This document shows positions 20,561-60,800 of a DNA stretch of 64,000 nt, piece by piece; within the stretch, counting starts at the first letter, position 1, and every line of letters begins with the position of its first letter. The stretch comes from Bilabrum cf. latius (taxonomy: Eukaryota): NCBI GenBank assembly GCA_965178125.1, contig OZ237741.1:1178001-1242000 (forward strand). Reading direction: 5' to 3'. Below the pieces are notes generated by a model. That model was not told the DNA's origin. It made no database searches and saw only the letters and a list, made by a program, of their open reading frames with translations. The translations under genes and the position numbers were made by a program.

Positions 20561-20682
20561 CGGTACCTGGCGTCTGCAGTGCATCTATTGGTTTCAGGTG
20601 GCTACAATAGCACCCAACACTTCCGGAATAACGCAAAGGGCAATTCTTCCGAACTTGGTTGGCACTGGTTATCCGCAAGAAC

Positions 20683-28320: not shown

Positions 28321-28854
28321 GGATCGGCACTGCTGAGTCGCCCTAAAACTGCGTCGGGGGACAATAGCCCCGCCAGGCCGCCGCGCACTGGAGGCAATTG
28401 GGGAGGTCTTGCCTGAGATTGGATTCTCTGCGAAGCGTGTCCCAATCGCCGGAGCTCTAGTGTATGCTCCAGTGTCGTCCCAGCACGGGTATTAGGAGAA
28501 TCAAACATGGCTCCGGAAGCTTGGCGCCGTGCGTCTCTCGAACCAGATGCGAGAGATACCAGCACGTGTCTGGCTCGAGCCACTCTCTCCGCATCGCCCG
28601 AGGAGTGCTCTCCATGGAGGTGAATATAGTCCTACATTAAGGCGGATTCAATAGTGTAGGCAGCGATGGCTTCCAAACTGCCTGGAAGCCTTGGTCGGGA
28701 AGAGAGAGAGAGAGAGAGAAAATAGAGTTTTCGCACGCAATTCAATACCAGAGACAATCCGAGGACTGCCACCAAAGGGAAGCATTTGAACCGAGAAGTG
28801 TGACGAGCCACAGCCACTCACAGGCAGACCCTCTAGAGTGAGCCACAGCCAGGC

Positions 28855-30813: not shown

Positions 30814-30924
30814 AAGGATCGGCAGATATTATGGCGGTTTCCGTTGCAGAAGATCGGGAGGCCGACTGACATGTGTGACGAGGGCACTCACAAATTTTCG
30901 AGGTTGCCACTTCACGGCAGCCTA

Positions 30925-33900: not shown

Positions 33901-34059
33901 TCCGTTGCCACTGCCAGTGCTGCAGCGCGGGGTGCTTCTGACGCACCTGCCTACCACAGGGGCGCAGTGCACGGGGTGGGCGAGCACGAGGCCAGGCTGA
34001 GGCAACTGCTCGGGCTCGGGGGGTTTTCTAGGCCGGCGGCGTCTGACCTGTTCCGATGA
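30925..34059 (+). CDS. Protein with IFT54/TRAF3IP1-like N-terminal CH domain, ankyrin repeats and an F-box-like segment (about 1044 aa)
   Basis: LRRPPFRLVLDV...ILRGKNPGRTCNLLHQLA; ankyrin motifs GFTALHYAA, GDTALHLAC and ETPLFPAA; LLVRVLAALDAADVAR. TAG at 30958, 33343 and 33679; ends TGA. Confidence 0.7.
32569..32780 (+). repeat. Coding (GGGTCT/GGCTCT)n Gly-Ser microsatellite followed by a 42-bp tandem duplication
   Basis: Read directly from sequence; encodes (GS)n and APALGSSPSWTRAT x2. Confidence 0.85.
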
Positions 34060-40234: not shown

Positions 40235-43200
40235 TCAGTCAGTTTTCTTGACCCTAGCGAGCAATGCTCTCGCCCGCGCCATCGCGTGCATGCTTCGAGC
40301 CAAAGCTGCATTGTGCGGTGCAGCAATCGACCGCTCCTGCCCCTCTCCACCCACAGCCTCACTGCTAGCCCCATCCCCGTCAGCCCCGCCGGCCCCGCCA
40401 GCAACCCCCACGTCCTCATCCTCCTCTTCCCCATCCTCCTCCACGTGCGCATCCGCCAGACCCCCGAGTCCGGACCCCGAGCTCTGCACCTCGATGCCGA
40501 CCGACTGCCCTGCCATGGGCGAGCCCGGGGTCATGGCCGGTGCCAGTGCAGACGCACCGGGGTCGCCTGGGGTCGGGGCCGGTGCCTGGCGAAGGACTGC
40601 CCCTGCCCCTGCCCCTGTCCCTGCCCCTGCCCCTGCCCCTACCCCTGCCCCTGCCCCTGCCCCTGCACCGCTGTCTTCATCTTCACCGAAGTATTCCATT
40701 TCCTCTGCCCTCCGCAGCGCCTCCTCCTCTTGCACCTCCTCCTCCTGCTCCTGCTCATCGTCCGAACTGGGAGCATCGCCCCAGCCTGAGGCATCTTTCC
40801 CACTAGCAGCAGCAGCACGGCCCGCTTCTAGAGCCTCCTTCTCTCTCTGCTCCACTTCCTTCCTGCCAACCGGACCCTCATTTTGCTCAAGATCCAGATC
40901 CAGATCCATGGGAAGAATTGCAGCATGCTCCTGATCAGCCGGTGCCTCTGCGACCTTCACGTTTCCATCGACCGCTGTGCCCTAGTCCTGCCCAACTGCC
41001 GCTGGTACATGCGGAGCCAAGACATCCTCGGATTCCACCTTGCCCCCCTTGCCGAGATCGGGCCCGGCGCCCTCGTCCTCGTGTGGCTGCAGCGAGGAAG
41101 GCGCCGGGTCTGTGCCTGCCGCTGGCTGGACTTGCGATGGCACGTCATTGCTTTGCGCCACAGTGCCATGCACCCCCTCCGGCCCTCCTGCAACATGCAC
41201 AGTATCATTCTCATCTCCACGAGCCGTATGATCATTGGCCTGCTGCCCACCTAGATCGCCGACTGCACCTGCATCATCGCCCTAAATATGCTTCTGCTGC
41301 TGCTGCTGCTGCTGCACACCCGCCTCCCTGTCGTTCTCATCCTACTCCACGTCACCAGCGCGCGAGCCCCGTTGCTGTCCGTCCTGCAGGCCCATCTCAA
41401 CGTCGACGTCGTCCTGCCCAGCAGCATTGTCGCCCTCCTCGTCCTCATCCTCAACTTCGTTCTCATCCTCGTCCTCAACCTCGTCGTGCTGATTCTGCTG
41501 CTCATGCTCGTGCTCATGCTACGGTGCCTCTTCCGTGATATTGGCCGCTGCACCGGTCCCGAAGCAGCAGCAGAAGCAGCAACCTCCACCCCGCTGCTGC
41601 CGGTAGTTCGGCACGAAGGTCGACAGACCTTCTCCACTGCAGTCGCATAGCAGGCAACAAGGCTCGTCCTAGTCGGGCCGCAGGCCGCCGAGCCGCCCCG
41701 TGCGCCGGCTGAGATCCAGCCTAGTCTTGGTGCGGTGCGCGGCCGGGTGCCGCTGCTCCTCTCTGGTCCTGGCAGGCGGCCCTGGCGCAGGCTCGGCCCC
41801 TACCGGCTTCCGGTCATCCAACCGTGGTGCTGCTGCGCCCTCCCCGCTGCGGTAGCCATGCCCATCAGCGTACTCGTCCTCCTGCCCCTGCTCCTGCTCC
41901 TGCTAGTAGGAATCATATCCACCCGCAGCACCAGCACCGGCACCGGCACCGCTGCCCCTGTCACCCCCAGCGTACTCGCTAGGGACACCCGCGGGAGCCC
42001 CCGGTGCCGGTGCCACGACATCGTCCTCGAAGGATCCAGCCTGCCTCGGGCTCGCCGGCCGCCTCCGCGACACCGATGACTCGGCTGAGCCTCTATCGTA
42101 GGACCTGCCTGTCTCTCCGCTCCTGTACCTTTCGTCAGGCCGGTCGCTACCCCGCCCATGGTCCGACATGTCCACTGACGCTGCGGCTGCTTGTGCCCCC
42201 GCGCCGCCCCCTCCGCTGACAGCCCCCTCCCAGTGCCCACTGCCTGTGCGGTTGTCACCCTGAAGCCGCCGTGGCGTTGCTTCAGCCGCATCAGCGTCCA
42301 TACCGTCCACGCTGCCGCAGCCGTGCTCGGAAGCAGAGGCCACTGAATCGTCCGCGCCTACCACGCCACGTGCCGTCTAGGCGGCAGCAAGCGCTGCCTC
42401 CCGCGCCCGTGCCATGTCTGCCTCCTTCTGGGCCTTGTCCCAGCGCCCGCTGCGCCTCGCCCGCATGTGGGGCGGCAGGCGGCTACTGGTCACCAGGGTG
42501 GGGGGCAGGCCGGGTGCCATGGGAGCCTCGACTGGCTCGTCGGCGGCTCGACCGCGATCTGGTGACCCGGCCTGCGCCTGTCGCCTGTTGTACTCCTCCT
42601 CCTGTCGCAGCTCGGCGGATGTCAGGCCGATGCCGCTCTGCCTTAGCGCCTCGATTCTGCGAGCGTCGCGGTAGGCAGCCACCTCCTCGTCTTCCTCGTC
42701 CTCGCAGCCCTCAATGCACGAGATGGGGATCAAAATGCTGATGTTCGTACCGAACACGTAGTCCATGATGCCCGCATCGATGTCCCGGAGCATGCGACCG
42801 AGAGATTTGAAAGCCTCCGACGATGCCCTCGACGTGTTGTTGAATGCGCCGGTGCCCGACCGCAGTCCCAGGAAGGGTGTCATGACCAGGAAGATGGACG
42901 CACCGAGCACCAGCAGGACGGGCGAAACCGCGAACGCGATCAAGAACACGGGCCACTCCCACAAGAAGTACCTGAGGTAGTCTCCGAACCCCAGGCCTCT
43001 CCTCTGGCTCTCGGCCTGCGCAGTTACTGCCATGTCTAACTCTTCCAGACCGATTCCCATCGAGTTGCGGTCCAGCACCGGCCAGAACATCACGATGGCC
43101 TTGTACCAAGTCACGAACAAGGCTAAGATGGTGAAGAAAAAGTACCACAGCGCGGTGAACGCGGGCACGACCGCAGCACCGATGATGCCAACGAACACGC

Positions 43201-45105
43201 TGGTGACCAGAGCGCAGCTGAAGTAGGGATCTGGCTCGCGGTTCGAGGGCGCGCAGCAGAAAGAGCTGAAGCTCAGTGGCGCGTTAGGGGACAAGCCCAG
43301 CAGAGCCCGCAGCAGGATCTCTGCCAGCATCCAGTAGTCCGTCGCAAAGTCGATGAGCCCTGCCTGCACGCCATACGGGAGCGGCGGCCGGTAGTCGCTC
43401 GTGTCCACCGAGGCCCCGCAGCAGCCCACCACTCTATCCTCCCTGGCAATCACGGCAGGGTCTGCGTCCTACCCGTGCACTCCCTACCCCCCGTTGCCCC
43501 TGCTCCCCCTGGAGCTGCTCTCCCTCCTGAGCTCCTCATCCCTGTCCAGAGCTCCCGTGCCCTCAAGGTCGTACAGCTCATCGGTCAGCTCAGTGTTGCA
43601 CAGCGTTCCACCGCGGCCCGTCCACTGCGGGCTTTGCGTGTAGTATACCACGAACCCGCTCTTGAAGCCCAGGAAGAAGCCCACCACGGGCAGAGACAGG
43701 CACAGCAGCAGGGCCGCCGCTGGCCACAGCAGGGCCAGGAGGGCTGCCACGATGACCCACGCGGGACGCTTACGGATGCCCCTTCGGTCAAGTCCGTACT
43801 CTTCGGCCCGCTGGGCCACGTGCAGATACCCGTACACGCACAACGGTAGGTATAGCAGCACCCCGGTAAGCGTGTAAAAGACCGCCTGCAGGGGTGCCAG
43901 GAGGCCCGCGCAGATCAGCCCGAGCAGCATGTCGCATATGCGGATCTCGCATGGGATACCTACCCAGTCCTGGTCCGAGTACTCGCTGAGCTGGAAGATG
44001 AGCTCGTCCGTGAGCAGGTTGTACCATGCTGTCATGTAGGTGCCCATCTGCGGACAAGAAGGATAGGGGGAGTTGGGTTGGAGAGGGGGGGGGGTGGGGG
44101 GTTGGAAGCGGGGGGGTTGAGATTGCACAAGTGTAGGGTGCTGTGACTGCTATCGCAATCGTGGTGCGGGGGAGTGAGGGTCGAGGCGAAGAGGACAGAC
44201 CCGTCGTGTATCCCCAGCCGTGCATAGCATTCAAATGATTATATCCTGTGGTTTGCGAATCTCACTCTCTTGATGGGGTCAGTAAACCCGCTGCAAAGGA
44301 AGAGGGCGTAGTGCACTCCCTCCGTGCACTGGGTCTGCCGACCGTTCAAGATGGCGAAGTAGGCGTGTACGTAGGCCGTCGCGATCGCAATGAAGATCAT
44401 GAGGATCACCGTTGCCGGAATGGCAAGGATGAACGCCAGTGGTAGCAGCAGGATAGCGATGAACCGGGCCCCGAGCAGCAGACGCGGCGTGATGCACAGC
44501 GCCAAGCACGACCGGTCGCACAGCTTCGGCAAAGCAAAAAGGTACATCCCAAGGCCCATGATGATTGCATACACCATGATGAATGGAAGAACCAGGGATC
44601 CTTCGATGATGCTGAGCAGCAGCGCCGAGGCAGAGACGAGCACTTCGCAGCAGATCTCTGCGCTGTCAAGCTCTGGAATATCCAGCTGCGGCGGCCGTTT
44701 TTGCAGCTCTTTATCGATCTCTTCGTTAACAACCAGATCTTCTAGGGCCTCTACCTCGCCCATGCGGTTGTCGTCGTCCAATGTCGCCCCCCTCCACCGC
44801 TCCTTAGTCTTCCTGGCTCCTGGCGGTGAGACGTACATGCCTCCGTCAGCCTCTGCCCCCCACTCATCACCTCCTGAATCGTCAGGATTGGATGGATCTT
44901 CATCTCGTTTACTTTCTGGTGCAGGACTCCGGTAGTACTAACCCCGCCTTCTGGAAGCAGGTGGGAGCCGAATGGCTGTGGTTGTGCGACCCGTCGGCGG
45001 TGCATCGGCAGGGGTCGGCGCCAACGCAGGGGCGGAACGATTGTGCAGCTTGTATGAGTCATATGCATCATCTGGGTACATGTCGCCTGGGCTTGCACTT
45101 GCCAT
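40235..45105 (-). CDS. Hypothetical multi-pass membrane protein with a long acidic disordered C-terminus; predicted intron 44048-44265
   Basis: Three hydrophobic blocks in ORFs 44239-44838, 43484-44128 and 42377-43453, joined by TAGs and one GT-AG intron; ends TGA 40235. Confidence 0.6.
40598..40666. repeat. Coding (CCCTGC)n hexamer repeat (Gly-Ala tract on the minus strand)
   Basis: Read directly from sequence. Confidence 0.8.
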
Positions 45106-45209: not shown

Positions 45210-46620
45210 ATGGCTCAAAAAGATGTCAAGCTTGTCATTGCAAACAAAATGTTTGATGCCGTAAGTTCTCGCCTGGCTGGCTCGGTTTGCGTTCTGTCTG
45301 TTGTTAATGGGCTGTCTACGTTTTTGCATTACTTGCCACTGCTGTGCTAGCAGGGTGTGGCTGCTCTCAACAAAGTCACGGATACCACAATACAAATGAA
45401 GTTTATCGATGCGATTAGATTCTTTGAAGCTGCGGCTGATACTTTCGTGACGATAGGAAAATGTGAGAATTGTGTATCGGCGAGCAGTAATCCAAGTCGC
45501 AGATCGTTCTTTGTCCAGTGGTAGCTCGGAAGCCTCACCGGTCTTGACCACAATCGCAGGGCGACGTGCTGGAGAGTCATACTTGCGCTGCTACGAGTCC
45601 CAGGTTCGCCTTGGTGACCGGTTGGCCGCCGCGACGTATGCCACCGATGCAGCACGTGCGTACAATAAGGTAGACCCAGCTTCCGCCATTCGAGCCCACC
45701 TGAAAGCAATCACGCATCTGGCAGGTACTGGTAGATTAGCCGCTGCTGCTGCTGAGCAGCTGGACGTTGCTGAGATATACGAAGAGGACGGGGCCTCGTA
45801 CGACGCAGCCGTCGCGCTGAGCAACGCAGCCGACTACTATGTCGCAGAGGCCATGCTGGCGCAGGCGGTGCACTGCCTCAAGCGAGCGGGGGCCCACCTT
45901 GTGGATGAGGAGAGATACAGCGACGCGCACGAGCGGTTCGACCGAGCGGCGAACCTCTCCCTGGACGACAACCTCCTCAAGTTCAACGCGCCGCCCATCT
46001 CGCTGGACGCCGCCCTGTGCCTCCTTTGCCTGAGAGACGACGAGCGGACAGTCAAGTACCTGAAAGACGTGTCCGAGAAAGACCTTAATTTCGTTGTCTC
46101 CCGTGAGAAACGGTTCCTGCTGGACCTGCTGCTGTGCGCGCAGGAGGGCAGGCTGGACGACCTGGTGGACCACATCTGGAACTACGACTATGCGGTGGAA
46201 CTGGAGCCGCACGAGCTGTCCATGCTGAGGGTGGTGTTCACCGTGGTGGAGGCATCCGTGCACACGTCCTCTGCTGACGCACAGGCGGCTCAGGCGGAGG
46301 AGGAGGACGCAAGCGAGGACAGCTGGGACGAGGACAGCTCGGGCGATGAGGACGAGGACGACGGGGGTGGCGCGGCCGCCAGCAGCCGGCGCTCGCGGAA
46401 ATCACAGAAGAAGAGAAAGAAGAGCAAGAAGAGCAAGAAATCCAAGGGAAGCAAGAAGAGCAAGAAAGCCAAAGGGGGTGTCTCGGCCGGTGATTCTCTC
46501 CTCCCCGACGAGGGCGACGCTTCAGACGGCAGCGGCAGCGTGGGTTCCGGCAGGACAGGATATACTGGAGCTACAGGTGTCACTGGGACGACAGGGGCGG
46601 CTTCAGGTGCGGGCAGATAA
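45210..46620 (+). CDS. Alpha-SNAP (NSF attachment protein)-like TPR protein with acidic/Lys-rich tail; probably two 5' introns
   Basis: AGESYLRC, AEIYEE, AADYY, DNLLKFNA, AALCLLC, SREKRFL and EPHELSMLRV match SNAP-family motifs; ends TAA. Exon boundaries are inferred. Confidence 0.75.
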
Positions 46621-47779
46621 CACGGTTTTGGCCGTGCTAGGCCGCGACTCGGATGCAAGATAGATATTGTTGAATACTGTGTTTCAAATCCAGGATCAGT
46701 ATGCACACTCAACATCCGGATATGCCACTAGTAGCCTTTCGAAATACGGCATTAGCACCGGTTGCTGCCTTAGGATCTTTAGTCTGCCCGGACCCCACTC
46801 TGGCACATGGACCGCAAATCGGACCCCCTCCAAAAATCCGCTAATCCGGATTCCGGATACACTCCGCAACTTTCCGTGCCAGTCAGCTTGTCTGCTAACT
46901 CATCCGAGATCCACCATTTCTCCTTTGTGAACTCCTGCCCCTTCATCTCTGACAGAGAGAATCCGCCACACCACCATCACACTACAGAAACACACATCAC
47001 GCTATCACGGCCGGGTTGGCTAGGTTGTTTATCTTTGCCATCCGGTACGACTTCCCGTAGTTGGCCTCTGACGCTGCGGAATCAGCACCATCCCCATTCA
47101 GCGCGGCACCGCCTCCCTTGCTGGTCGCCTCGTCGGGTCTGGGGGGGGGGGCGGGGCTGGTGCATGGTCCCACCGTCCGACCCACATTATTGCCGGCAAA
47201 CCACCACACCACCAGCACCACGGCAGCACCCACCGCCACACCGTGACCCGCAAAAATAGCCACGGGTGCACCCCCACCATCATCCCTTTCCCCACCATCC
47301 CCCTTCTGCGGGATGGGCTCGCCCCTCGCCTCCGCCACCAGCGCATCGGACGACGGCTGCACAAACCTCGCAGCCTACAGCACCGGTCGGTGTTGGCTTT
47401 AGAGTATGGCTATAACGGCAGGGTTTCTTCGAAGTGTGGTTTGTGTGCTGCGAATGCCCCAAAGTAGAAATACAGAAATACAGAAATACATTGTTGGGTA
47501 AAGATTCCATAAACACCCAGATGCACCGTCGCCCCCGAGGGGGTTTGGATGATCACCTAGATCCAGAGGAGCCCTAAAAACAAAGGACTACAAGACCCCC
47601 GACCCTTTCAGGCCAAAGGCCCCCCGTTCTCAGCCTATGCCGCTGAGTTCCCGTTCGTCGCCATCAGTGTGGTCCAAAGTAGATCTGCCTGCTTTTGTGG
47701 CGAGCACTTTTTGCGTGTTTCCACCCCGGCACTGGACTAAAGCAAGCAAGTGACGTCTCCTGACTACCTGATCGGTATT

Positions 47780-50700
47780 ATGGCATCAGCTAGCCCTGGA
47801 ACTGATAGCACCACTACAAAAGAGCCATAGACCCGTGCAGACTCTGCAGGGCCCGGTCCCGATCTGCCTGAAAGCTTTCTCGAAATCTGCCGCATGACGA
47901 ACTCGGGCAATACTGCATTGCGACATCGACAGGCCCTATAGATCCTGGACAGATGCACCAAGCCAGCAGATGGACTATGCTTACTTGATCACAGCGGATT
48001 TGGGGCAGTCTTCCGTGTGGTTCTCCCTCTAATCAGCGCTGCTGTTGCCGTTGGCGATGCCCCGCCTGTTTCTGACCTCTTTGCAGTCAAGGCAGCCTTC
48101 AACTGGGGACAGCCCGCATGCAAGTTCGAAAACATGGCCTTGCAAAAAGAGCTCGATGTGCTCGGTGGATTGCCCGAGCACCGCAACCTGCGCCGCGTGC
48201 TGTTCGAGTGCGTGTGCGAACCGCCCGTGTGGATGGTGGAGATGCTGCCTGACCCTAGATCGGTATGCATGAATGCCGGCGGTGCTCATCTCCTATCGAA
48301 GGACTCGTCAAACGCTGGTGCTCTTCCCCTGCGGCCCCAGAAGGCCCTGATGGTAGGCATGGAGCTGCTCGACAGCACGCTGCGTGATCACCTTAACATC
48401 GTGGAGGGGGATGAGCCGGGGTCCATGCCTGACGATGTGCTGGTGCAGCTGTCCAGGGATATCGCGGAGGGCGTGTATCATCTGCTGCAGCACGGGGTGG
48501 TGCACCGAAGCCTGAAGCTGGACAACGTCATGTGGTCCGCGACTGGGGGTCCGGATGGCGTTGGGCGGGCTGTGCTGACCGGTCTCGGGTGCTCGCTGCG
48601 TGTGCACGTAGATGGAGCTGCGGTATCATTGGGCAGCACTGTACCGGCCGATCCAGTCGCTGCTTCTGCCGCTACTTCTGGTGCGGATCCCAATGATGAT
48701 GATGCATGCATCGGTATTGGTGCCAGGGCTAAGCATGAGCCTGGTGTGGAGGAGGCACTGCATCAGGTAACATACCGGTAGTGGAAGGATGGCGGTGACA
48801 GGCTTGGTGGCAATTAGGCTCACATGGCCCCTGAGGTGCTTGACGGCTGGCACCGGGGAGATATGGGTGACTTAGACGCTCGTGTACCCTTCGGCAAACA
48901 GGCATCGTGGGAGCTGGGCGTATTACTGTACGAGCTGGCCACCGGAGGGCAGCACCCGTTCGGGGACCAGTATCCTGGCGAGATGCAGGATGGGAGCAAA
49001 CCAAGGCTCAGGAGTCTGGCAGCTGCAATGCATGCATGCAAAGCTCCGATGGCGGGTCATGATGTGCTGTCGAGGCGTCCTGGGTGGTATATCGACATGG
49101 TGCGTGGCTTGCTGTGTATCGACCCTGAAGACAGGACCGGTGTGGAAGACGCCGTGCGGATACTCCGATCGAGAGAGGCACGTTGTGCATTGATACCAGC
49201 TGTAGCTGATGTCCGAGCCTTTGTGCCTGCACTGCTTGCTGACGGGGCAGAGTGCGAGTCAGCGGTGGCCAGGGTGAGGGAGCAGGTGGATGGGCTGATG
49301 GCGAGGGGGGACTGGGATGGGGTGTATCGGGTGCTGTGGCAGCTGCGGGTGGAGTCGGGAGTGAATCGGCCTGACGACTTCCCAGACTAGCCCCGGCTGC
49401 TGCTCGATGAAGTACGTGGTGCTGTCACTGACCATGTGCTGACTGACGCGGGTGAACTGGAGAGGATTGTAAAAGGGCTAAGTGCAGAAGGGGCGACGGA
49501 CGCAGGAATTGCGACATTCTTGGTCTGGCGAATGTGCTACAAAAACGATAAAGCACAGACACGCTTTGTGGATGAAGGTGCATTGGACAGCCTGGTAGGA
49601 TTGCTTAGATCCAGCAAGGGCAAGGAGGCTGAGTATGCCGCTGGAGCGCTCGTCAACATCGCTGCTGGATCCGTTGACAAGATGCAGGCCGTGGTGGATG
49701 CCGGTGCGCTGGGAGGACTGGTTGCTCTGCTCGGATCCAGCAAGGGCAAGGAGGCTGAATATGCAGCTAGGGCACTTTAGATTATTGCTGCTGGATCGGA
49801 CGATCTCAGACAGGCCGTGGTGGATGCCGGTGCGCTGGTAGGTCTGGTTGCTCTGCTCGGATCCAGCAAGGGCGAGGAGGCTCAATGCGCAGCCGGAGCA
49901 CTTCACAATATCGCTGCTGGATCGGACGATCTCAAGCAGGCCGTGGTGGATGCCGGCGCGTTACCCGGGCTTGTGTCACTGCTCGGATCCAGCAAGGGCA
50001 AGGAGGCTGAATATGCCGCTGGAGCGCTCGTCAACTTCGCTGCTGGATCCGTTGACAAGATGCAGGCCGTGGTGGATGCCGGTGCGCTGGGAGGACTGGT
50101 TGCTCTGCTCGGATCTAGCAAGGGCGACGAGGCTCAATGCGCAGCCGCAGCACTTCACAATATTGCTGCTGGATCGGACGATCTCAGACAGGCCGTGGTG
50201 GATGCCGGTGCGCTGGGAGGACTGGTTGCTCTGCTCGGATCCAGCAAGGGCAAGGAGGCTCAATGCGCAGCCGCAGCACTTCTGAGTATCGCTGCTGGAT
50301 CGGACGATCTCAAGCAGGCCGTGGTGGATGCCGGTGCGCTGGGAGGACTGGTTGCTCTGCTCGGATCCAGCAAGGGCGAGGAGGCTGAATATGCAGCCGC
50401 AGCACTTCACAATATTGCTGCTGGATCGGACGATTTCAGACAGGCCGTGGTGGATGCCGGTGCGCTGGTAGGTCTGGTTGCTCTGCTCGGATCCAGCAAG
50501 GGCAAGGAGGCTGAATATGCAGCTAGGGCACTTTAGATTATTGCTGCTGGATCGGACGACCAGAAGCAGGCCGTGGTGGATGCCGGCGCGTTACCCGGGC
50601 TTGTGTCACTGCTCGGATCCAGCAAGGGCAAGGAGGCTGAGTATGCCGCTGGAGCGCTCGTCAACTTCGCTGCTGGATCCGTTGACAAGATGCAGGCCGT

Positions 50701-53479
50701 GGTGGATGCCGGTGCGCTGGGAGGACTGGTTGCTCTGCTCGGATCCAGCAAGGGCGACGAGGCTGAATGCGCAGTCGGAGCACTTCACAATATTGCTGCT
50801 GGATCGGACGATCTCAGACAGGCCGTGGTGGATGCCGGTGCGCTGGTAGGTCTGGTTGCTCTGCTCGGATCCAGCAAGGGCAAGGAGGCTCAATGCGCAG
50901 CCGCAGCACTTCTGAGTATTGCTGCTGGATCGGACGACCAGAAGCAGGCCGTGGTGGATGCCGGTGCGCTGGGAGGACTGGTTGCTCTGCTCGGATCCAG
51001 CAAGGGCAAGGAGGCTGAATATGCAGCTAGGGCACTTTGGAATATCGCTGCTGGATCGGACGATCTCAGACAGGCCGTGGTGGATGCCGGTGCGCTGGTA
51101 GGTCTGGTTGCCATGCTCGGATCCCGCAAGGGCGACGAGGCTGAATATGCAGCTAGGGCACTTTAGAATATCGCTGCTAGACTGAACGATCTCAGGCAGG
51201 CCGTGGTGGATGCGGGCGCGCTGGGAGGACTGGTTGCTCTGCTCGGATCCAGCAAGGGCGAGGAGGCTCAATGCGCAGCCGCAGCACTTCACAATATCGC
51301 TGCTGGATCGGACGATCTCAGACAGGCCGTGGTGGATGCTGGTGCGCTGGGAGGTCTGGTTGCTCTGCTCGGATCCAGCAAGGGCAAGGAGGCTGAAGCC
51401 GCTGCCGCAGTACTTTGGAATATCGCTACTGGATCGGACGGCAGGAAGCAGGCCGTGGTGGATGCCGGTGCGCTGGGAGGACTGGTTGCTCTGCTCGGAT
51501 CCAGCAAGGGCGACGAGGCTCAATGCGCAGTCGGAGCACTTCACAATATCGCTACTGGATCGGACGATCTCAAGCAGGCCGTGGTGGATGCCGGTGCGCT
51601 GGTAGGTCTGGTTGCTCTGCTCGGATCCAGCAAGGGCGAGGAGGCTGAATATGCAGCCGCAGCACTTCACAATGTTGCTGCTGGATCGGACGGCAGGAAG
51701 CAGGCCGTGGTGGATGCCGGTGCGCTGGGAGGACTGGTTGCTCTGCTCGGATCCAGCAAGGGCAAGGAGGCTGAATATGCAGCTAGGGCACTTTAGAATA
51801 TCGCTGCTGGATCGGACGATCTCAAACAGGCCGTGGTGGATGCCGGTGCGCTGGGAGGACTGGTTGCTCTGCTCGGATCCAGCAAGGGCAAGGAGGCTGA
51901 ATGCGCAGTCGGAGCACTTCACAATATTGCTGCTGGATCGGACGGCAGGAAGCAGGCCGTGGTGGATGCCGGTGCGCTGGGAGGAATGGTTGCTCTGCTC
52001 GGATCCAGCAAGGGCAAGGAGGCTCAATGCGCAGCCGCAGCACTTTAGAATATCGCTGCTGGATAGGACGATCTCAGACAGGCCGTGGTGGATGCGGGCG
52101 CGCTGGGAGGACTGGTTGCTCTGCTCGGATCCAGCAAGGGCAAGGAGGCTGAATATGCAGCCGCAGCACTTCACAATATCGTTACTGGATCGGACGATCT
52201 CAGACAGGCCGTGGTGGATGCCGGTGCGCTGGGAGGACTGGTTGCTCTGCTCGGATCCAGCAAGGGCGACGAGGCTGAATATGCAGCCGTGGCTCTTTGG
52301 AATATCGCTGCTGGATCGGACGATCTCAAGCAGGCCGTGGTGGATGCCGGTGCGCTGGGAGGACTGGTTGCTCTGCTCGGATCCAGCAAGGGCGACGAGG
52401 CTGAATATGCAGCCGTGGCTCTTTGGAATATCGCTGCTGGATCGGACGATCTCAGACAGGCCGTGGTGGATGCCGGTGCGCTGGGAGGACTGGTTGCTCT
52501 GCTCGGATCCAGCAAGGGCAAGGAGGCTCAATGCGCAGCCGCAGCACTTCACAATATTGCTGCTGGATCGGACGATCTCAGACAGGCCATGGTGGATGCG
52601 GGCGCGCTGGGAGGACTGGTTGCTCTGCTCGGATCCAGCAAGGGCAAGGAGGCTGAATATGCAACCGTGGCTCTTTGGAATATCGCTGCTGGATCGGACG
52701 ATCTCAGACAGGCCATGGTGGATGCCGGTGCGCTGGTAGGTCTGGTTGCTCTGCTCGGATCCAGCAAGGGCAAGGAGGCTGAATATGCAGCTAGGGCACT
52801 TTAGAATATCGCTGCTGGATCGGACGATCTCAAGCAGGCCGTGGTGGATGCCGGTGCGCTGGTAGGTCTGGTTGCTCTGCTCGGATCCAGCAAGGGCGAG
52901 GAGGCTGAATATGCAGCCGCAGCACTTTAGAATATCGCTGCTGGATCGGACGATCTCAAGCAGGCCGTGGTGGATGCCGGTGCGCTGGTAGGAATGGTTG
53001 CTCTGCTCGGATCCAGCAAGGGCGACGAGGCTGAATGCGCAGCCGCAGCACTTTAGAATATCGCTGCTGGATCGGACGGCAGGAAGCAGGCCGTGGTGGA
53101 TGCCGGTGCGCTGGTAGGTCTGGTTGCTCTGCTCGGATCCAGCAAGGGCAAGGAGGCTGAATATGCAGCTAGGGCACTTTAGAATATCGCTGCTGGATCG
53201 GACGATCTCAAACAGGCCGTGGTGGATGCGGGCGCGCTGGGAGGATTGGTGGCGCTACTTGGGTGGGACAGAGGCATGAAAGCTGTACACGCTGCTGTCG
53301 TGCTAGTGACAGTGTGGAACGGGTCCAATAATTTTAAAGAGGCTGTTGTGTCCGCTGGTGCAATTCCAAGGCTGATTCAAATGAGAAACCAGGGTGCTGG
53401 CGATGTGGCCATGCATGCGCGTCTGGCTCTAAGGCAAATGGATCCGGATTCCGGATGGATGACGTGTATTGCAACTTAA
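47780..53479 (+). CDS. Pseudokinase (PINK1-like fold) + about 30 armadillo repeats + C-terminal CaaX (CIAT); 1899 aa
   Basis: One frame from ATG 47780 to TAA 53477 with 15 TAGs and no TAA/TGA. Kinase motifs SGFGAVF, FAVK, HRSLKLDN, GLG, GGN*AHMAPEV and WELGVLLYELATGGQHPF; ARM consensus VVDAGALGGLVALLGSSKGKEAEYAARALxNIA. Confidence 0.85.
49565..53344 (+). repeat. Coding tandem array of 30 x 126-bp (42-aa) armadillo repeats
   Basis: GTGGTGGATGCCGGTGCG-type unit starts recur every 126 bp (49691, 49817 ... 53219); the first and last units are divergent caps. Confidence 0.95.
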
Positions 53480-56270
53480 TGGTCGGCGCCGCGCCCAGTC
53501 AATGGCGACGGGACCGATTTAAGTGCACGCAACTATTTCGGGGTTCTGGCCAAATCTGGAACCGCCCATTATCTCGCTTAATACTCATTCAACATGATAT
53601 TTAATCGCATTAAATGATTTAATATGATATTATACTCTGATTTTCGCGGTGGAAAATTCTGTTAGACATCGTGATGCGCACCTGTGATACCATGAAGGGT
53701 CGGTACCCCTTGTTGCTTGGGTGCGGCTACAGGCGTACACAGAGAGGGTTTTTGATCAAAACGCCTAGAATCACACCTCAACCCAAGTATCAATCGACTG
53801 TGAGATTAGCTGGAAAATGTTTTTGGTTAGCGTCTTGCCAGGCCTAGCCAAAGGCAATATCGCACTGCCCTGCAAGGGACATACATTCTATGATTCCAAG
53901 GCCCATAGAGGTCACTGCGCGAAATCAAGCCCGCAAATGTGTATTTTGACTATACTTACATCCCTTGCACCAGTTTGCGTTGAATTGATTTCGTGCCGAA
54001 CCGCCGGAACTGCACTGGGTCCGCGAAGTGGAATGCCTGGCGCGGCTGGGCTTCGTTCGAGCCGAACCAAAACGCCTCCTTCAAGCGCATGTCAGCCCGT
54101 AGAACCCCGTGACGGCTGAAGACGATACTTCGAGACTATCATCCCGGACCGCGTTGTCGCCGTCGCTATCTGCAATCCCTGCTCCTGTGCCTGCTCGGCT
54201 GCGTCCTGCGCTTCCTAATCCCCCAGCTCGTCTTCCTGGTCCTTCAGGTTGTCTTCCTGGTCCTTCAGGTCGTCTTCGCCATCGCTGCCGTAGCGTTCAA
54301 CCCATTTCTTGTGCATGCCTGACCGCAACTGTTCGCGTTTACGCCCTGCCGTGATGCTCGAGACCGCGCTTGGCTCGCCTGCTCCTCCCCCCGCCCTGCG
54401 CTGCTTCTTCAATGTCTGCAGCCCACCCTTTGCCCCCGCTCTTGGTCTTGCTCTTGCTCAAGCCCTTATACTCCCATGCCCTCTTGTCAGCGACGACAAA
54501 TAAACACGGCTCCAAGGACAGCTCCATCCAGCGTTTACTACGACAGCCTCCAGCAAGTCTCCTCCAGCCAAACCGGAACAACCGCGAGGCCAGGTCCAGG
54601 ATGCTCTCCCGCTTCTCTGTGTCCTCGATCAGCTAAAACGCGTTTCGGGCAGCATTCTCAGGCTCTGGCACCCCACGAACAAATCGGCTATCTCGGTTGG
54701 CCAGGATCCACAGCACTGCATGCCAAGACTGCACCAGCGACCCCACCGCGCAACCCTGGATCGAGCGACTTTCGCCGCTGGTTGGGCGAGGCTCTCCGCC
54801 AGAAAGTGGGCACATCGTTGTCATTGCTCGGCGCAGACGCTGGACCGCTGGTCGCCTCACCTCGCATTCTGTCTCGCCACGGGCGCAGCACGAGCACCTC
54901 CGGTCCCCCTGGATCCCCTGCCACCCTGCCCAGTGGTCCAGGCCCCGGAGCCGCCCGGGCGGTGCCAGAGCTCAACAGCTGGTTCCAGGCCAGCTGTACT
55001 GTTGAGCTTGTTTCTAGTTCTGATTGCCTAATTTAGACGCTTCAAGCTTTCCTTGGCTGTGTCGCATAGCTACAGAACGAGCGACTAAATAGCCCCGGTT
55101 CCACATGCAGAGGCTGCCGCAGATATGCCACCTAGCTCAAGATGAACTCGTACAAGCGCCAAATCCACAGTTCTAGGTGTCCAGCTAGTGATACCGACTT
55201 ACAGGACACGAAGGTATGTAGAGATAGGCCTCTTGCCGTGCACGATCGATAGTGCAGCGGCCACCAGAGAAACTGCGCATGCGTATGCAACTGCGCATCG
55301 AGCAGCCTAATGGTGATTTTTCTGCTGCTAAATAATTTTGTCCTCCTTCAGCGTATTCAAGCGTTGCTACATCCCTGTATCCAGTTTTAGAGGCTGACCG
55401 TCCAAATCTAAGGACCTGTCCAGTTGGCTTAGGCGGTCTCTCGCCTCAATCGAGGTGTATGATGTCTGCGAAACCCATCAGAATAGAACTGTAGTATGTA
55501 AAATACAAATATATAAAGGTAGTACCCTCCATTCTGCCAATCATGCATTTTAATCGATCATATCGACAAAAATATGTCCACGACACCCCTACCTTCAAAG
55601 CCAATTTGCAAAAATACGTCATCTCCGAATTCGCTCAAACTTCCAGACAATGATTAAAACCCACGGAAGGTACAGTAGAGGGAGAAAGAGAAGGGGGTCA
55701 GGCTTCGTTTCCATGCCAGACCTGCCTGAAGAGCACCGTGTTGCACGTCAGACCACAACAAATCGCCCGTAGTCCCGCCCAACACGGCACAATCGCGTCA
55801 AATAACGCAGAAATTACATTTAAACCTATGTACTAATCCAATTCACCGCACCTTCCTCGGAAAAATCATCAAGTTGTAGATTTCGGCTCGGCCAGCGAGC
55901 ACTCGGGACAGGCCATCACGCCATCCCAATTACCCCCACCATTTTACGATCAATGTAAAATTCAATGCCACCAAAAAAACAAATACACAATTCTATTTAA
56001 CATAAATTTTACGGTATTTGAGATATTGCCTCAATCTCGAGAAAATCGCGATTGAGTGCCAGGCGAGCAGCGCCTCACCTTGTCGGACGGGCCAGTGGAG
56101 CTACTTGCCGGATCCATGACCTCGGATCCAGCGCACCAATCGAATATAGTAATCAATTCATTCCTATTGTCAGACTTTTGAAAGAATTCATTCAGTGGTA
56201 GCCGAGGAAAGTGGCCGTAAAGAATCCGGAACCCTCTCCCGTCGCCATTGACTGGGCGCGGCGCCGACCA
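53480..56270. mobile_element. Non-autonomous TIR DNA transposon (2791 bp), PIF/Harbinger-like TAA target-site duplication
   Basis: Perfect 34-bp inverted repeats (TGGTCGGCGCCGCGCCCAGTCAATGGCGACGGGA at 53480-53513, reverse complement at 56237-56270). TAA lies immediately outside both ends (53477-79, 56271-73). AT-rich subterminal regions; no intact transposase seen. Confidence 0.88.
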
Positions 56271-56690
56271 TAAGACTAGACAACATTGATTACCAGAAGT
56301 ATCCGGATGCTACGTAGTGGTGGCCCCTACTACCTTGCATATCCAGATTTGTCTCGACGTCTGTACTTGGATACCATGATGGGAAGGGCTCTCGGAAGGA
56401 TAGAAATTCTGCGACCATGTGTGACTTGGGCCAACAGCTGTCAAATCGTGTACAATGTGCGATTTCAGTACACGGAGGTGCAGCACAGTGTGTCGCCTCA
56501 CAAACTGTACCTCAGTAAGCTAGGTAGGAATAGTGCCAGCCTGCGCCACTCGGTCTATAGTATTGTTCCACAGCCATTCCATAATGAACCCAGAGCTCTG
56601 GCATGCATCGCAAATTACCCAGCCACACAATCTGAATAGGATCAAAGCACGCCTCTACAGTTGACTATGATTCTAATGGCTGCGAGTCGA

Positions 56691-57716
56691 TCAGTCGCTA
56701 GCCCCTTCCGCCCTACCCCCGCCCTTCGCCTCGGCTACCTCTTTGGTGTTGAGGCCGTGCTTGGGCACGCCACCGCCTGCCACTGCCTCCAGGTTGTCTA
56801 GCGCCATGCGGGCCATCCGCGAGCGGGTCTTGAGGGTGGCTGAACCCACGTGGGGAGAGATCACCGCCCGCTCGGATCGAAGCAAGGGGTGGTCCCGGGG
56901 CAGCGGCTCTGGCTCCGTCACGTCGGTCGCGTAGCAGTAAATGCTCCCCGCCTCCAGGGCCTGTACCACGGCTTCGTGGTCCACAAGCTTGCCCCTGCCG
57001 ATGTTCACGAGCACTGCCTGCTCGTGCATGCATGCCAGCTCTTCGCTCCCGATCATGCCCTCGGTCTCTGAGTTGCAGGGCACTGCAAGCACCACGAAGT
57101 CGCACGCGCGGAGCAAGTCCGAGAGCTTGGCGGCGTACTCGGCTTTGCAAGCCGCTTCGATCTCGGGACTCGCACGCTTGCGATTGTGGTAGCTAATTTT
57201 CATGTCGAAAGCGAGCGCCCTTCGCGCGATGCACTGACCAATTCGACCAAGCCCCACAATTCCAAGGCGGCTGCCGTGAACCTCCACGCCGAACCAGTTC
57301 GGATCCACTCTCTCGAACCCCGGCGAGCGAACGCGCTTGTCCCCGCTCACAATGTTTCTGGCTCCGGCGAGCAGCAAAGCCATGGCAACGTCAGCCGTGG
57401 CTTCACTCATCGCGCCTGGCGTGTTGCCTACATATATATTTGCAGCTGTTGCGTCTGACGTGACGATGTGATCGCACCCCACCCCAAAGTTGCTGACTAT
57501 TTTAAGCTTCGGAAATCTGTCCAGAACTGTTTTGTCGACGGTGGGGTGCCCGTGAACCAACAGTCCTACTACCTCGTCAGCCCGATCTTCCGGCGGAGAC
57601 AAAGCCTCGGACAAGAGAACCTCAAATCGATCTGTCACCAATTTCTGCATGGCCGGAACAAATTCTTTGTCCATAACAACAAGCGGCTTCGATTTAGCCC
57701 CAGAAACCGCGGCCAT
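56691..57716 (-). CDS. D-isomer-specific 2-hydroxyacid dehydrogenase (glyoxylate/hydroxypyruvate reductase-like)
   Basis: SNFGVGCDH, GNTPG, GIVGLGRIG, LVNIGRG, DVTEPEPLP and SPHVGSAT; ends TGA. Confidence 0.92.
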   Translation of the reverse strand: MAAVSGAKSKPLVVMDKEFVPAMQKLVTDRFEVLLSEALSPPEDRADEVVGLLVHGHPTVDKTVLDRFPKLKIVSNFGVGCDHIVTSDATAANIYVGNTPGAMSEATADVAMALLLAGARNIVSGDKRVRSPGFERVDPNWFGVEVHGSRLGIVGLGRIGQCIARRALAFDMKISYHNRKRASPEIEAACKAEYAAKLSDLLRACDFVVLAVPCNSETEGMIGSEELACMHEQAVLVNIGRGKLVDHEAVVQALEAGSIYCYATDVTEPEPLPRDHPLLRSERAVISPHVGSATLKTRSRMARMALDNLEAVAGGGVPKHGLNTKEVAEAKGGGRAEGASD

Positions 57717-57850
57717 AACAACAAAATCAAAATATGGGGTGCACCAACTGCAAATGCCTCAGCCACACCTGTCTCCGATCGGATCGGATCGAGGGACCAG
57801 GAATACCCGGCCACCTGCGGCAAGCACGGCATAGCCCGTCCTTAAGGCCA

Positions 57851-60800
57851 TCATTCCAAGTCTGGGGGAGGTCCTTCCGGCAACGGGATGTCTTCTGGGA
57901 TGACAAAATCCACCCCTCCGGGTGGCGCACGGCCCTGTGAAGCTGCCGAGCCTGCCAATGGCGCCTGCTGGTTCTCGTACCCACCTGGCCAGTCTCCTGC
58001 AGATGCATCGTCATCGAGACCATCGCTCGCCCCGGGCACGGCTTCCTCGGCATACTTGGCTGCTGCCTCGAGCACGGCGCTCTGTTCGGGGGATCGAACC
58101 TGGGCCTTAGAGTTGCCCTAGGGCGATCCCATGCCCTTTGGATGCAAGGGAGGTGAACATGCCGGGTCACCACCATCCGGGTCACCACCAGCACCAGGTG
58201 CATCGCCACCCCGACCTGGGACAACACCGGTACCCGTGTCTTCGTGCCCGCCCTCGCCCCGGCGCCGGTCCCTCCCCCGCGGCTGGCCGGCAGGCGGCTT
58301 CACCCCCTTCCAATGCTTGGCCCTATCCCCTGGCAGACTGCCAATAACAATCCTAGTCTCTGCTCCGGCCAAGAACGACAGCGCGGCGTTCACTCGGGCT
58401 GCGTCTGCTGGGCTGGTCGCACCGCGGGTGGGCATTGGAGTGGACAGCTGCGAAGGGGAAGGCAACGCTTGCTTGCTCTCTGAGTCCGGTGTGCCGCGTT
58501 TGCCTCGCCCGTGCACTGCCCGACTCTTCCGCAGCGGGCTTGTCCTTGCTGCAGCCGAGCTGGCCTGGGGTACATCTCGAGGTGTGAGTCTCCGCCCACT
58601 GGCGCTTGCACGTCCCACTGGAGACAGCAGCAGAGGGGAGTGCTTCGGGGCCGCGGCGAGCTGCATGATTTTGCTGGGGCTATTAGAACTAGCGACAGCC
58701 TGCACTGGAGCACCACCATCATCGGCCTTGTGCTCGTGGCTGGTTGAAACAAGCTACCCATCGCTAAACGCCGACTAGGCTTCCACCGTCTCACCCACCG
58801 GCTTTGATGCAGCAAGGGCATCGGTGCCAAGCTCAGCCCCCCTGGCAGCATCCTGTGCTCGCCCTCCTGACCGAGCCGAAGCCAAGCGCTCCACATGCTC
58901 CGAGTCCATCGCGCCCAGGTCTAGGTGCATCGTCCGGATGCCCGGGCTTGGCGCGCCCGAGCCGGATCCGGTGCCCGGTGAGCTGCCGGCAGACCCGCGG
59001 CCCGATCTACTCTGCTCCTGCCCTAGTTGTTGTCTCTGCTTCAGCTCGGATGCTTCCACCAGCAAGGATGTTCTTCGCTTCGGAGCCAACAGCTCCTCCG
59101 TCAGTCGATCGGGGCGCCCGTCTAGCCGCATGGGCAGTCGGTCGGTGGGTGACCTGGCTGAGACATGCGCGGCAGGCTGCGGTGCTGGCCCTCGGCCAGG
59201 TGACGGCTGCTTGCCGGCAAATGCGCGGCGTGGCACCGCCTCTGGCGGCAGCGGCTGGCTGTTTTGGCGATGCTACGCGGGCTCCGGCTGCCATTGGGGC
59301 TTGTACCCTGGTATTGGCGCCGCCTTGTTGCGTCGCACCGCCTGCTGCACCTCTGCACGCCGCTGCATCCGAAGCGAGAGTCGCCTGCGGGAGTGATCGA
59401 GCGGAGACTCTCCCTCCTGCCGAGCGGCCGCCAGCTGCCTCCTCTCCGTGGCCGACAGCACGGGTCCATCCCTGCCCCCTTTGGGTGGGGATTGCGCCTG
59501 TGAGTCCTGGCTAGGCCGGGGCCCGCCCCAGCGGGACGGGCTGCTTGCCGAAGGGGAAGAGGCCGAGTTCAATGGGGAGAGAGAGGTCTATACCGCGGCA
59601 GGGCGGCCCGCCAGGCTGCTGAACGAAGCAGACGCGCGACCAGGACCAGTTCGACCTAGAGCGGGCTGTGCGCCCGAGGACTGCGAATGGGACGGCGATG
59701 TGCCCGGAGACAGGCGTTGTTCCAGCGAGAACAGGACGCTCTCAGCCGCACTGACAGCCGAAGGAGACTCTCTGCTCCCTGGCTGTATCTCGCCAGGCAC
59801 GCGCTTGGCCTTGGCCTGGCTCTCTGCTCCACTGACGGGTGGGCCGGTACTCCCGTCAGCCAGCCCAGCGCCGGCAAGCCGACTGTTGGCGCAACGCAAG
59901 GCGCCGGGATGGAAGGGTTGCCTGGCTTGTTCGCTGGCACATGCCAAATGCACCCCTTCTGAAGCGTACACGGCTGCAGCGACCGCCGGCACGACCGCGT
60001 CAGTCTTGCTCTTAAAATGCAAGACTTCCTGACCGTCTGGCAGAGGCGCGCCCCACGCCAGAGGCACGCGCACCTGTGCCACGGCACTGCCCTGCTGCTC
60101 GCTTTCGTCCACCGACACGCTCGCGCCCAGGCTGTGCAGCAGGATGGCTGCCACTGGCAGGGGCACCGTGTGGCACCCTGCATCCGACAACACCGCCACG
60201 AGGGGGGCCTCGGGGCCGCCTAGAGATGGCTCACGCGCCTGTGCCTTCAAAGGAGAAGATGGGGTGTTCAGACCATTGGACTGCACGCATATGAAGGCGG
60301 GCTGTCCACCTAGCAGCTAGCGCAGCGGGTTGGTTGCGGGTCCAGGGGATGCCTTGAGAACCAAAGCCGCGCCGTGCGACCCGTTGTACTGCTCCCATCG
60401 CTGCAGCACAGCACGAAACCGGCTCAGCGCATCTGCTGGGCCTACTGGCGATGCCAACGCAGCCGCCATTGCCCCGGCCGCAGCGGAGACGTGCTGCCAG
60501 GAGGTGCCTCCAGCAGCAACACTAGCCTCTGCTCGTTCGTCCTATCGCGGTGCAGAAGTGCGATCATGCAGCCCTGGTGCGTCTGCCGGCTTGTTCACCG
60601 AGCGCACTGCGAGGTACCGGTCATCCCGAGGATGCACCTCTGCCAGCCCATACGGCACCGGCGCCGTCTCGGCCTCGGTACTGCTAAGTGCATGCGATCC
60701 TAGGGCCAGGCCCACCTCGACAGGCAGCATGATTCTGAGTCCGGAACCACGTGGCTCTTCGACTGATGCATCACCTGGCTGTTGGCCAGCTTCTGACACG

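Follow-up and report, generated by a model that had tools for sequence, protein, structure and literature searches.

Gene structure and genetic code

The DNA investigated here is a stretch of 64,000 nucleotides (nt) from Bilabrum cf. latius (contig OZ237741.1), hereafter called the window, in which all positions are numbered from its first letter. It contains, on the forward strand, a gene encoding a protein of 1899 residues in three parts: a kinase-like domain, a helical linker and 31 armadillo (ARM) units. The gene and its TAG codons were located as follows:

47780..53479, forward strand: coding sequence of the ARM-array kinase-like gene, 1899 codons and a TAA stop, no intron needed
47828, 47939, 48779, 48815, 49388, 49778, 50534, 51164, 51794, 52046, 52064, 52802, 52928, 53054, 53180, forward strand: 15 TAG sense codons

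In a Pfam search of the full protein, the Arm family was matched with 472.3 bits over 16 stretches (cut-off 20.6), together with the related families ARM_ARMC5 and ARM_PUB, while Pkinase was matched with 38.4 bits (cut-off 31.7) at residues 187-255 only. The sole family besides the Arm-type and kinase ones was TrbC, a spurious match with 0 stretches.

Translated with table 15, the gene frame has TAG in 15 places and is free of TGA and, up to its terminal stop, of TAA; under table 11 these TAGs are its only interruptions. The other two forward frames of 47780-53479 carry 23 (frame 2) and 55 (frame 3) TAA and TGA codons. TAG itself is equally common across the three forward frames (15, 15 and 13) and is therefore not avoided in the coding frame. 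Fourteen long frames were picked from stop to stop in the window under table 15; thirteen of them have TAG in frame, and their terminators are TGA (11) and TAA (3). Over the whole window, TAG acts as a sense codon. An earlier note on this DNA had stated that the gene is only intact when TAG is read through, which proved correct; this readthrough represents the code of the organism and not a defect, and the gene is real and intact in an organism using TAG as sense.

Glutamine is most likely the residue encoded by TAG, because TAGs match the Q of QxW motifs as well as the Q of relatives at residue 346. Two TAGs are found at the Q of QxW-type motifs, which we take to be typical of ricin lectins, within the Pfam ricin-lectin match of an alpha-galactosidase frame. 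The TAG at residue 346 (GGN-Q-A-H-M-APE) pairs with Q in two of the four relatives that cover this residue. Nine of the 15 TAGs represent the Gln codon at position 32 of the ARM repeat. UAG-only reassignments are known from few lineages, as far as the consulted part of the literature goes, and no tRNA gene was found in the 64,000-nt window by a tRNA search. The alternative that the TAGs are CAG codons damaged by C-to-T (repeat-induced point mutation-like) changes was rejected, with TAG in frame in nearly all long frames and repeat position 32 being TAG in nine units without a CAG or CAA alternative there.

The kinase-like head and the linker

The protein's N-terminal part comprises the following features:

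47975..49177, forward strand: probable PINK1-like kinase-fold domain, approximately residues 66-466, with long insertions and catalytically degenerate (Pfam, PDB sequence search and Foldseek; boundaries approximate)
47987..48010, forward strand: degenerate glycine-rich loop DHSGFGAV, in which only the third glycine of GxGxxG remains
48503..48526, forward strand: catalytic loop HRSLKLDN, HRD Asp replaced by Ser (codon AGC)
48578..48598, forward strand: start of the activation segment, GLG for DFG (Gly codon GGT)
49214..49558, forward strand: conserved helical linker, residues 479-593 (AlphaFold: seven helices, predicted local distance difference test, pLDDT, 80-91)

Active kinases are defined by the catalytic Asp of HRD, the Mg-binding Asp of DFG and the GxGxxG loop. 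In the head these motifs are replaced by HRS, GLG and DHSGFG, respectively, whereas the head retains APE as well as the Lys of beta-3 (AVK) and the Glu of helix C. Together with the Pkinase match above cut-off, these replacements agree with the N-terminal pseudokinase that had been proposed for this gene. The HRD Asp is kept in five of the six relatives covering the catalytic loop and the DFG Asp in five of the six covering that motif (three DFG, two DLG), and the two glycines lost from the glycine-rich loop are kept in most relatives. One relative, P0013, is degenerate at both catalytic aspartates, as is the present gene. It is well supported by these motifs that the head would be catalytically dead in this copy, within a family that appears mostly catalytically equipped, and, having lost these motifs, this copy seems unable to act as a ubiquitin Ser65 kinase.

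Among characterised kinases, the head appears to be closest to PINK1. In a search of PDB sequences, the closest solved sequences for the 1899-residue protein were PINK1 (E 2.5e-5), as was the nearest one for the motif-intact relative P0002 (E 1e-9); a family profile made from six sequences gave 12 matches at E<=1e-6, all of which were PINK1. The PINK1 matches come from several species. What resembles PINK1 is mainly the catalytic loop and the beginning of the activation segment, together with the GGN..APE segment. PINK1 is thus the nearest solved kinase, but the match is short and weak; unlike PINK1, this copy lacks both catalytic aspartates, and PINK1 itself has no ARM array. The matches of a Foldseek search with the low-confidence kinase model were protein kinases in general, among which IRE1 ranked first and PINK1 twelfth; in this structure search, which used a poor model, IRE1 and CaMKII-type kinases equal or outrank PINK1. 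For P0002, the nearest language-model cluster (score 0.96-0.97, unconfirmed by sequence search) was that of STKLD1, a kinase-like protein of vertebrates whose C-terminal region is of the ARM type. ARM_LRRK2 was found on 26-43% of the members of this cluster, but STKLD1 is without a tandem array of near-identical units.

The AlphaFold model is good for the C-lobe and for the helical region 479-600. The linker is conserved in the relatives P0004, P0009 and P0010, and its modelled helices are possibly cryptic ARM-like helices.

The armadillo array

Three segments were distinguished in the array:

49559..49684, forward strand: ARM unit 1, a diverged N-terminal cap, ~80% identical as DNA to unit 4 and unit 9
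49685..53212, forward strand: ARM units 2-29, the near-identical core (28 x 126 nt), variable at unit positions 10, 22, 25, 26, 29, 32, 41 and 42
53213..53464, forward strand: ARM units 30-31, a degenerate C-terminal cap

About 30 near-identical ARM repeats had been claimed, and 31 units were indeed counted, of which 28 are near-identical. The mean pairwise identity of core units 2-29 is 87.7% for DNA and 83.4% for protein, and their identity to the consensus unit is 88.6%. Tandem Repeats Finder reported a period of 126 nt and 28.9 copies. Measured at an anchor motif (D/S-A/E-G-A-L/I), the spacing is exactly 42 residues in 30 of 30 cases, and there are zero indels among the 31 units. The 28 core units are all distinct as DNA and represent 27 distinct proteins; the net charge of units 2-29 is -52.

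Variation among the core units is concentrated at few positions. Entropy exceeds 1 bit at unit positions 10, 22, 26, 29, 32, 41 and 42 only, followed by position 25 (0.86 bit) and positions 28, 33 and 34 (0.6-0.7 bit). At positions 29 (codon states AGG, GGA, GCA and GTG) and 32 (TAG, CAC, TGG, GTC and CTG) the alternatives are separated by several bases. Position 33 is Asn in 24 of the 28 core units. An AlphaFold model of units 24-31 with the tail (mean pLDDT 86.6, predicted template modelling score 0.82) has three helices per unit: H1 beginning at position 39 and extending into the following unit up to position 5, H2 at 8-18 and H3 at 22-35. Positions 22, 25, 26, 29, 32 and 33 share one face of H3, and the conserved A24, A27, L31 and I34 are buried opposite. 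The localized variability that had been reported for the array was thus found on the predicted binding helix, and in this model the unit differences appear almost confined to residues expected to contact a bound peptide.

Selection was estimated from pooled Nei-Gojobori counts among the 28 core units, a crude measure, as synonymous (pS) and non-synonymous (pN) differences per site:

All 42 codons: pS 0.19, pN 0.097, pN/pS 0.50
31 scaffold codons: pS 0.12, pN 0.025, pN/pS 0.20
11 variable codons: pS 0.49 (inflated by multi-step codon paths), pN 0.28, pN/pS 0.56

Judged from these counts, the scaffold and the reading frame clearly appear to be under constraint. At codons 10, 22, 26, 29, 32, 41 and 42, pN is 0.23-0.50 and thereby above the array-wide pS, with per-codon values of 0.48-0.50 at positions 29, 32 and 41; diversifying selection is suggested at the variable sites. 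A recombinant array would confound a formal site test of selection.

The array is a mosaic, for which recombination would be the source. All four combinations of states were observed in 254 of 990 informative site pairs, some of them 1-10 nt apart, and 17 kinds of helix-3 cassettes are present among the 28 units. Distant units are no less similar than near ones, there is no long block duplication, and the longest exact run common at any unit lag measures 124 nt. Because of this independence from distance and the short exact runs, a collapsed or duplicated assembly appears unlikely; so do an assembly artefact and a very recent block duplication, given 28 units all distinct at the DNA level.

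Likeness to designed armadillo repeat proteins

The best structural matches of the array are consensus-designed armadillo repeat proteins (dArmRPs; e.g. PDB 5MFM, 5MFD and 6S9O), with template modelling scores of 0.75-0.83 and 40-42% identity. They are also its best sequence matches (E 1e-81), ahead of importin-alpha, which we take to be the natural template of dArmRPs. Array and dArmRPs have in common 42-residue three-helix units and an Asn ladder on helix 3. The array differs from the designed proteins in being natural, in having 31 units versus 4-10, in being fused to a kinase-like head and in its net charge of -52 over units 2-29.

In the alignment, array positions 25, 26, 29, 32 and 33 correspond to Q, E, W, S/R and N of the dArmRPs, and engineered “Lock1” repeats depart from the consensus exactly at the positions matching 25, 26, 29 and 32. 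For the dArmRPs we assume the contact numbering 29/30/33/36/37, which is anchored by this alignment and by the residues given in the next sentence. According to the accessible part of PMC11228518, the pockets of designed ARM proteins are built from residues 29, 30 and 33 of helix 3 in two neighbouring repeats, and seven positions were randomized in the library. On the alignment, four variable positions of H3 appear to match those that engineers change to reprogram the peptide specificity of dArmRPs. By model and alignment, the variable positions of the array would fall on those through which the best-understood ARM scaffold for peptides contacts its ligand, and we infer that the array may bind peptides.

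Relatives and copy number

Of the 185 proteins found at E<=1e-3 by an exhaustive profile-free search with residues 1-600, 33 reached E<=1e-10 and nine E<=1e-30. The best relatives are short metagenome fragments with 40-70% identity; fragments are to be expected, because genes with in-frame TAGs are cut when called under the standard code. A word-index search with residues 1-595 among proteins of near length gave no match. P0002 is colinear with the protein over residues 73-587. P0004 (312 residues) comprises the linker and 3.5 near-identical 42-residue ARM units with other helix-3 residues, and seven of the ten differences between the consensus unit and the P0004 unit fall in helix 3. The metagenome locus L001, a single frame open at both ends with nine in-frame TAGs, codes for a head with HRD and DFG intact, followed by the linker and by two ARM units that are identical to each other and again have other helix-3 residues. 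A further metagenome locus (L002:4114-7308, forward strand) encodes a related head with HRD and DFG intact and 15 in-frame TAGs, followed by a non-ARM low-complexity tail. In this tail, ubiquitin-interacting-motif-like motifs were seen by eye only, with no Pfam match at E<=0.01; they are intriguing beside the PINK1 likeness.

The N-terminal stretch of the gene is present in seven sequencing runs from three studies. Contigs of four runs were placed on 46600-49690. Exact contigs over the gene were found in runs X2, X5 and X6, and the same runs contain many contigs that are 85-95% alike over the conserved kinase blocks. The 186 contig pieces of X2 were distributed over identities of >=99% (46), 95-99% (29), 90-95% (44) and <90% (67), and the same alternative letter at one place is shared by as many as 15 contigs of X2 and 17 contigs of X5. 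Because of these diverged contigs and shared alternative letters within the same runs, the gene is apparently a member of a lineage-specific multi-copy family. Paralogue-like sequences, which the earlier note had proposed to look for, are thus represented by diverged contigs in runs containing the locus and by metagenome relatives, while tblastn found no second copy within the 64-kb window.

The C-terminus

The protein ends in a Cys four residues from its end, as had been described:

53465..53476, forward strand: CIAT, CaaX-like box, in a low-confidence tail

The last six residues, CIAT included, have a pLDDT <50. According to the accessible part of PMC10320760, yeast farnesyltransferase accepts most CXXX sequences, the main bars being D/E/K/R at a2 and K/P/R at X. 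Neither restriction applies to CIAT, which is compatible with these rules. It is nevertheless weak evidence for prenylation, because any Cys at this place qualifies and Cys represents 1.4% of the residues of the 1899-residue protein. The box may allow C-terminal prenylation and a membrane tether. No C-terminus of a relative was recovered when the last 100 residues were compared with shorter proteins by word-index search and when the metagenome loci were inspected.

Comparison with other repeat proteins

A search with the ARM region gave 223 matches at E<=1e-20 among 8000 candidates scored, with 23-37% identity among the best 120 of them. Protist and algal data are rich in very long ARM proteins (1000-3300 residues), some of which also carry a kinase-like domain. 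In the full sequences of four uncharacterised proteins, P0254 (Phytophthora oleae), P0258 (an MMETSP alga), P0236 and P0246, a long ARM array comes after a kinase-like domain at the N-terminus; P0200 (Tetradesmus obliquus) and P0250 (Mesostigma), likewise uncharacterised, combine both domain types according to their domain lists. The catalytic loop is also degenerate in P0254 (HGY) and P0258 (HRA). The kinases of these proteins are only generically related to the present head (BLASTP E 2e-4 or worse), the identity of their ARM units is 26-35% in the three kinase-ARM proteins measured (P0236 has too few units), and the C-terminal cysteine box is absent in all four full sequences.

Adjacent units are far more alike in the present array than in other long ARM proteins. 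Among 120 of these, the median adjacent-unit identity is 0.26, and only two reach at least 0.6 in a segment of 210 residues (P0200 with 0.73 and P0255 with 0.72), the other 118 being below 0.5. In the present array the best 210-residue segment has an adjacent-unit identity of 0.90, and the identity is high throughout. P0200 and P0255 (Cladocopium goreaui) each have approximately 7-8 similar ARM units with helix-3 variation that includes the residue before the conserved Asn. Runs of near-identical ARM units with helix-3 variation may, by these sequences, be wider than this lineage.

The architecture had been put forward as undescribed. This stands in part: kinase-ARM fusions are already found in algal and oomycete databases, but none has comparably conserved units. 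New here are the extreme internal conservation with variation at contact sites, the PINK1-like head and the cysteine box, whereas the kinase-ARM fusion itself is not new. A literature search on highly conserved internal repeats and armadillo found no such ARM array among the papers listed, which is no proof that none exists.

These comparisons bear on a more ordinary explanation, in which the protein would be a scaffold (a cytoskeletal, ciliary or trafficking adaptor) grown by tandem duplication, its structural positions under constraint, with drift in helix 3 or with one long endogenous partner. The abundance of long ARM proteins in protist and algal data, the occurrence of kinase-ARM fusions in several lineages, the otherwise housekeeping content of the window and a pN/pS below 1 are in line with such a scaffold. 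However, loops and outer helices, which usually drift, are nearly invariant and the groove residues are the most variable ones; the codon states at positions 29 and 32 are several bases apart; and 118 of the 120 long ARM proteins do not reach an adjacent-unit identity of 0.5. We regard an ordinary scaffold as rather doubtful.

A different parallel is offered by fungal NOD-like receptors (NLRs). The accessible part of PMC4986451 reports high internal repeat conservation in the WD, ANK and TPR arrays of fungal NLRs, with such conservation being rare elsewhere, and uses an internal repeat identity >85% across >=100 residues as its criterion. Set against this 85% threshold, the array has a mean unit identity just under it (83.4%), an identity of 88.6% to the consensus and an adjacent-unit identity of 0.90 in its best 210-residue segment. 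The array and the fungal repeats (HET-E/NWD WD40, ANK and TPR) are alike in their near-identical units, their mosaic structure, which suggests exchange between units, and the variability of their predicted binding surface. Unlike a fungal NLR, the protein has ARM repeats instead of WD, ANK or TPR repeats and no NACHT or NB-ARC domain; Pfam found no NOD, NACHT, NB-ARC or death-type domain in its 1899 residues. The likeness claimed in the earlier note therefore holds for conserved repeats with localized variability, and does not extend to a NOD, NACHT or death-type domain or, with a crude pN/pS of 0.50, to the selection estimate.

By analogy, the protein could be an immune-like non-self receptor, one of a repertoire of such sensors, with ARM grooves recognising foreign (viral, bacterial or parasite) proteins, heads that signal, and prenylation directing it to the membrane. 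Conserved repeats with variation on the predicted binding face are, as far as the accessible part of PMC4986451 goes, the hallmark of fungal NLRs, and only two of 120 long ARM proteins show any such conservation. Furthermore, the family appears multi-copy and divergent, most differences between relatives also fall in helix 3 (seven of ten against the P0004 unit), and a transposon-rich setting with atypical composition (see below) is common at fast-evolving loci. On the other hand, Pfam identified no domain for nucleotide-binding oligomerisation or cell death, the crude pN/pS is not above 1, the window holds no paralogue cluster, and the analogy is one of pattern only. Such a receptor seems unlikely to us.

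The inserted element and the surroundings of the gene

Two repeats adjoin the gene, neither of them assigned to a strand:

53480..56270: inverted-repeat element, 2791 bp, non-autonomous, with perfect 34-nt ends at 53480-53513 and 56237-56270
47432..47640: high-copy dispersed sequence between genes, upstream of the kinase-like gene, identified from summed contig depth

A 3-bp TWA target duplication and terminal inverted repeats are typical of PIF/Harbinger transposons. The element has ends of this type, with 34-nt perfect inverted repeats flanked by copies of TAA at 53477-53479, which is the stop codon of the gene, and at 56271-56273. Because the empty site would still read ACT-TAA, the insertion left the protein unaltered and its CIAT end is native; the original 3' flank of the gene has been shifted by 2.8 kb. 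No Pfam family, and no transposase domain, was found in the seven open reading frames within or overlapping the element, which is non-autonomous at best because no DDE transposase is among them.

In run X2, depth over 47432-47640 is 9,594-21,274 versus ~70-270 in the six preceding bins (46600-47431), and this excess of ~100-fold over the surroundings identifies the segment as a dispersed repeat. It includes an 8-nt x3 microsatellite at 47466-47490. GC content is 0.54-0.61 over 46-58 kb versus 0.62 for the whole window. The description of an atypical, transposon-hit island is borne out by the lower GC content, overall and at third codon positions (GC3), and by one certain transposon-like insertion.

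These surroundings raise the question of a decaying or silenced paralogue, which has lost its kinase, carries a transposon at its 3' end and is en route to a pseudogene, its open frame reflecting youth. Such decay would agree with the three degenerate catalytic motifs, the element at the stop codon, the low GC3 and the absence of the stretch from the runs on record as RNA. A dead gene is argued against, however, because the 1899 codons contain no TGA, TAA, indel or frameshift despite appreciable synonymous divergence, the units differing by 0.19 per synonymous site. The scaffold codons have a pN/pS of 0.20, the insertion spares both the stop codon and the frame, and the loss of both aspartates recurs in P0013, which is what a maintained pseudokinase subtype would show. 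We consider decay very unlikely.

Proposed function

The reading we prefer, to which we give about an even chance, is that of a PINK1-like dead kinase joined by a linker to an ARM array, in a eukaryote with TAG for Gln, whose binding specificity can be changed quickly. The dead head would most likely act as a docking or allosteric module, presumably in a scaffold role. The 31 units would fold as a superhelix like that of importin-alpha and dArmRPs, with a groove lined by helix 3 of every unit, in which a near-continuous Asn ladder would grip the backbone of a long extended polypeptide and the variable residues on the same helix face would make side-chain pockets that differ from unit to unit. 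By exchanging short segments among units, the array would reshuffle these pockets, leading to a fast change of specificity with the scaffold kept constant, and membrane attachment may be provided by the cysteine box at the C-terminus. These properties suggest a diversifiable recognition protein.

Several observations weigh against this proposal. The PINK1 likeness is based on ~50 residues near the catalytic loop, and the AlphaFold N-lobe is poor (pLDDT <50 for residues 1-202). In the array, the pocket Trp of dArmRPs and importin is absent, position 29 never being Trp, and to our knowledge 31 units far exceed any peptide-binding ARM groove. By the crude estimate, pN/pS stays below 1, both overall (0.50) and, set against synonymous change in the same codons, at the 11 variable codons (0.56). 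The ladder Asn is Ser or His in both relatives with visible ARM units (P0004 and L001), by which backbone binding may not be a family trait. The diverged contigs might belong to other organisms in mixed samples and not to paralogues. Separation of the gene from its 3' flank by the element could impair expression, and its GC3 of 0.56-0.61, versus 0.65-0.89 in eight neighbouring frames, is low, as in weakly expressed or young genes. Finally, none of the runs on record as RNA contains the gene stretch. Exact contigs in X5 and X6, two runs only guessed to be RNA, start at 47754 and 47744, which is 26-36 nt upstream of the ATG, and intergenic 46808-47223 is uncovered in them; as a sign of expression these contig starts are a weak hint at most.

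A bolder version of a changeable recognition protein, which we think quite improbable, would regard the array as a natural modular peptide reader, in which adjacent unit pairs specify one or two residues through the 17 interchangeable cassettes, and which an uncultured protist lineage with TAG for Gln would employ as a diversifiable receptor family with PINK1-like kinase or pseudokinase heads. It would be a protein-recognition analogue of the TALE or PUF codes.

Armadillo proteins whose repeats each read part of a peptide have been a goal of protein engineering for years. The array is of interest as what appears to be a natural series of 31 units on nearly the designed consensus scaffold, varied at the positions that engineers use for modular peptide readout. 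If this variation sets specificity, it would provide natural pocket solutions for modular peptide binders, and the pattern of conserved repeats with hypervariable contacts seen in fungal NLRs would extend to ARM repeats and to a protist with an unusual code. It also holds a warning for annotation: the standard code fragments such genes, as their relatives appear in public protein collections.

Neighbouring genes

The gene and its repeats are flanked by two genes annotated with Pfam:

45451-46620, forward strand: SNAP
56691-57758, reverse strand: 2-hydroxyacid dehydrogenase

Other genes recognised in the window are those for an AAA ATPase, a sulfatase, an alpha-galactosidase and a WD40 protein of the PLRG1/PRP46 type, which matches solved spliceosome chains with E 4e-126. 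With SNAP, the dehydrogenase, the PLRG1-like protein and the AAA ATPase, the neighbourhood is of the housekeeping kind that had been reported. The window is that of a GC-rich eukaryote, with long and mostly uninterrupted frames such as 17206-19116 (reverse strand), 6397-8193 (forward strand) and 26065-28491 (reverse strand). The first of these encodes the alpha-galactosidase, in which a ricin-type lectin domain sits between the catalytic barrel and a C-terminal beta-sandwich. Two low-complexity-rich frames, 40235-44230 and 57851-62950 (both reverse strand; 1331 and 1699 residues), have 10 in-frame TAGs each and no Pfam family. A flagellated organism is suggested by the frame at 30745-34059 (forward strand), where ankyrin repeats accompany a CH-like domain of MIP-T3 (IFT54-type).

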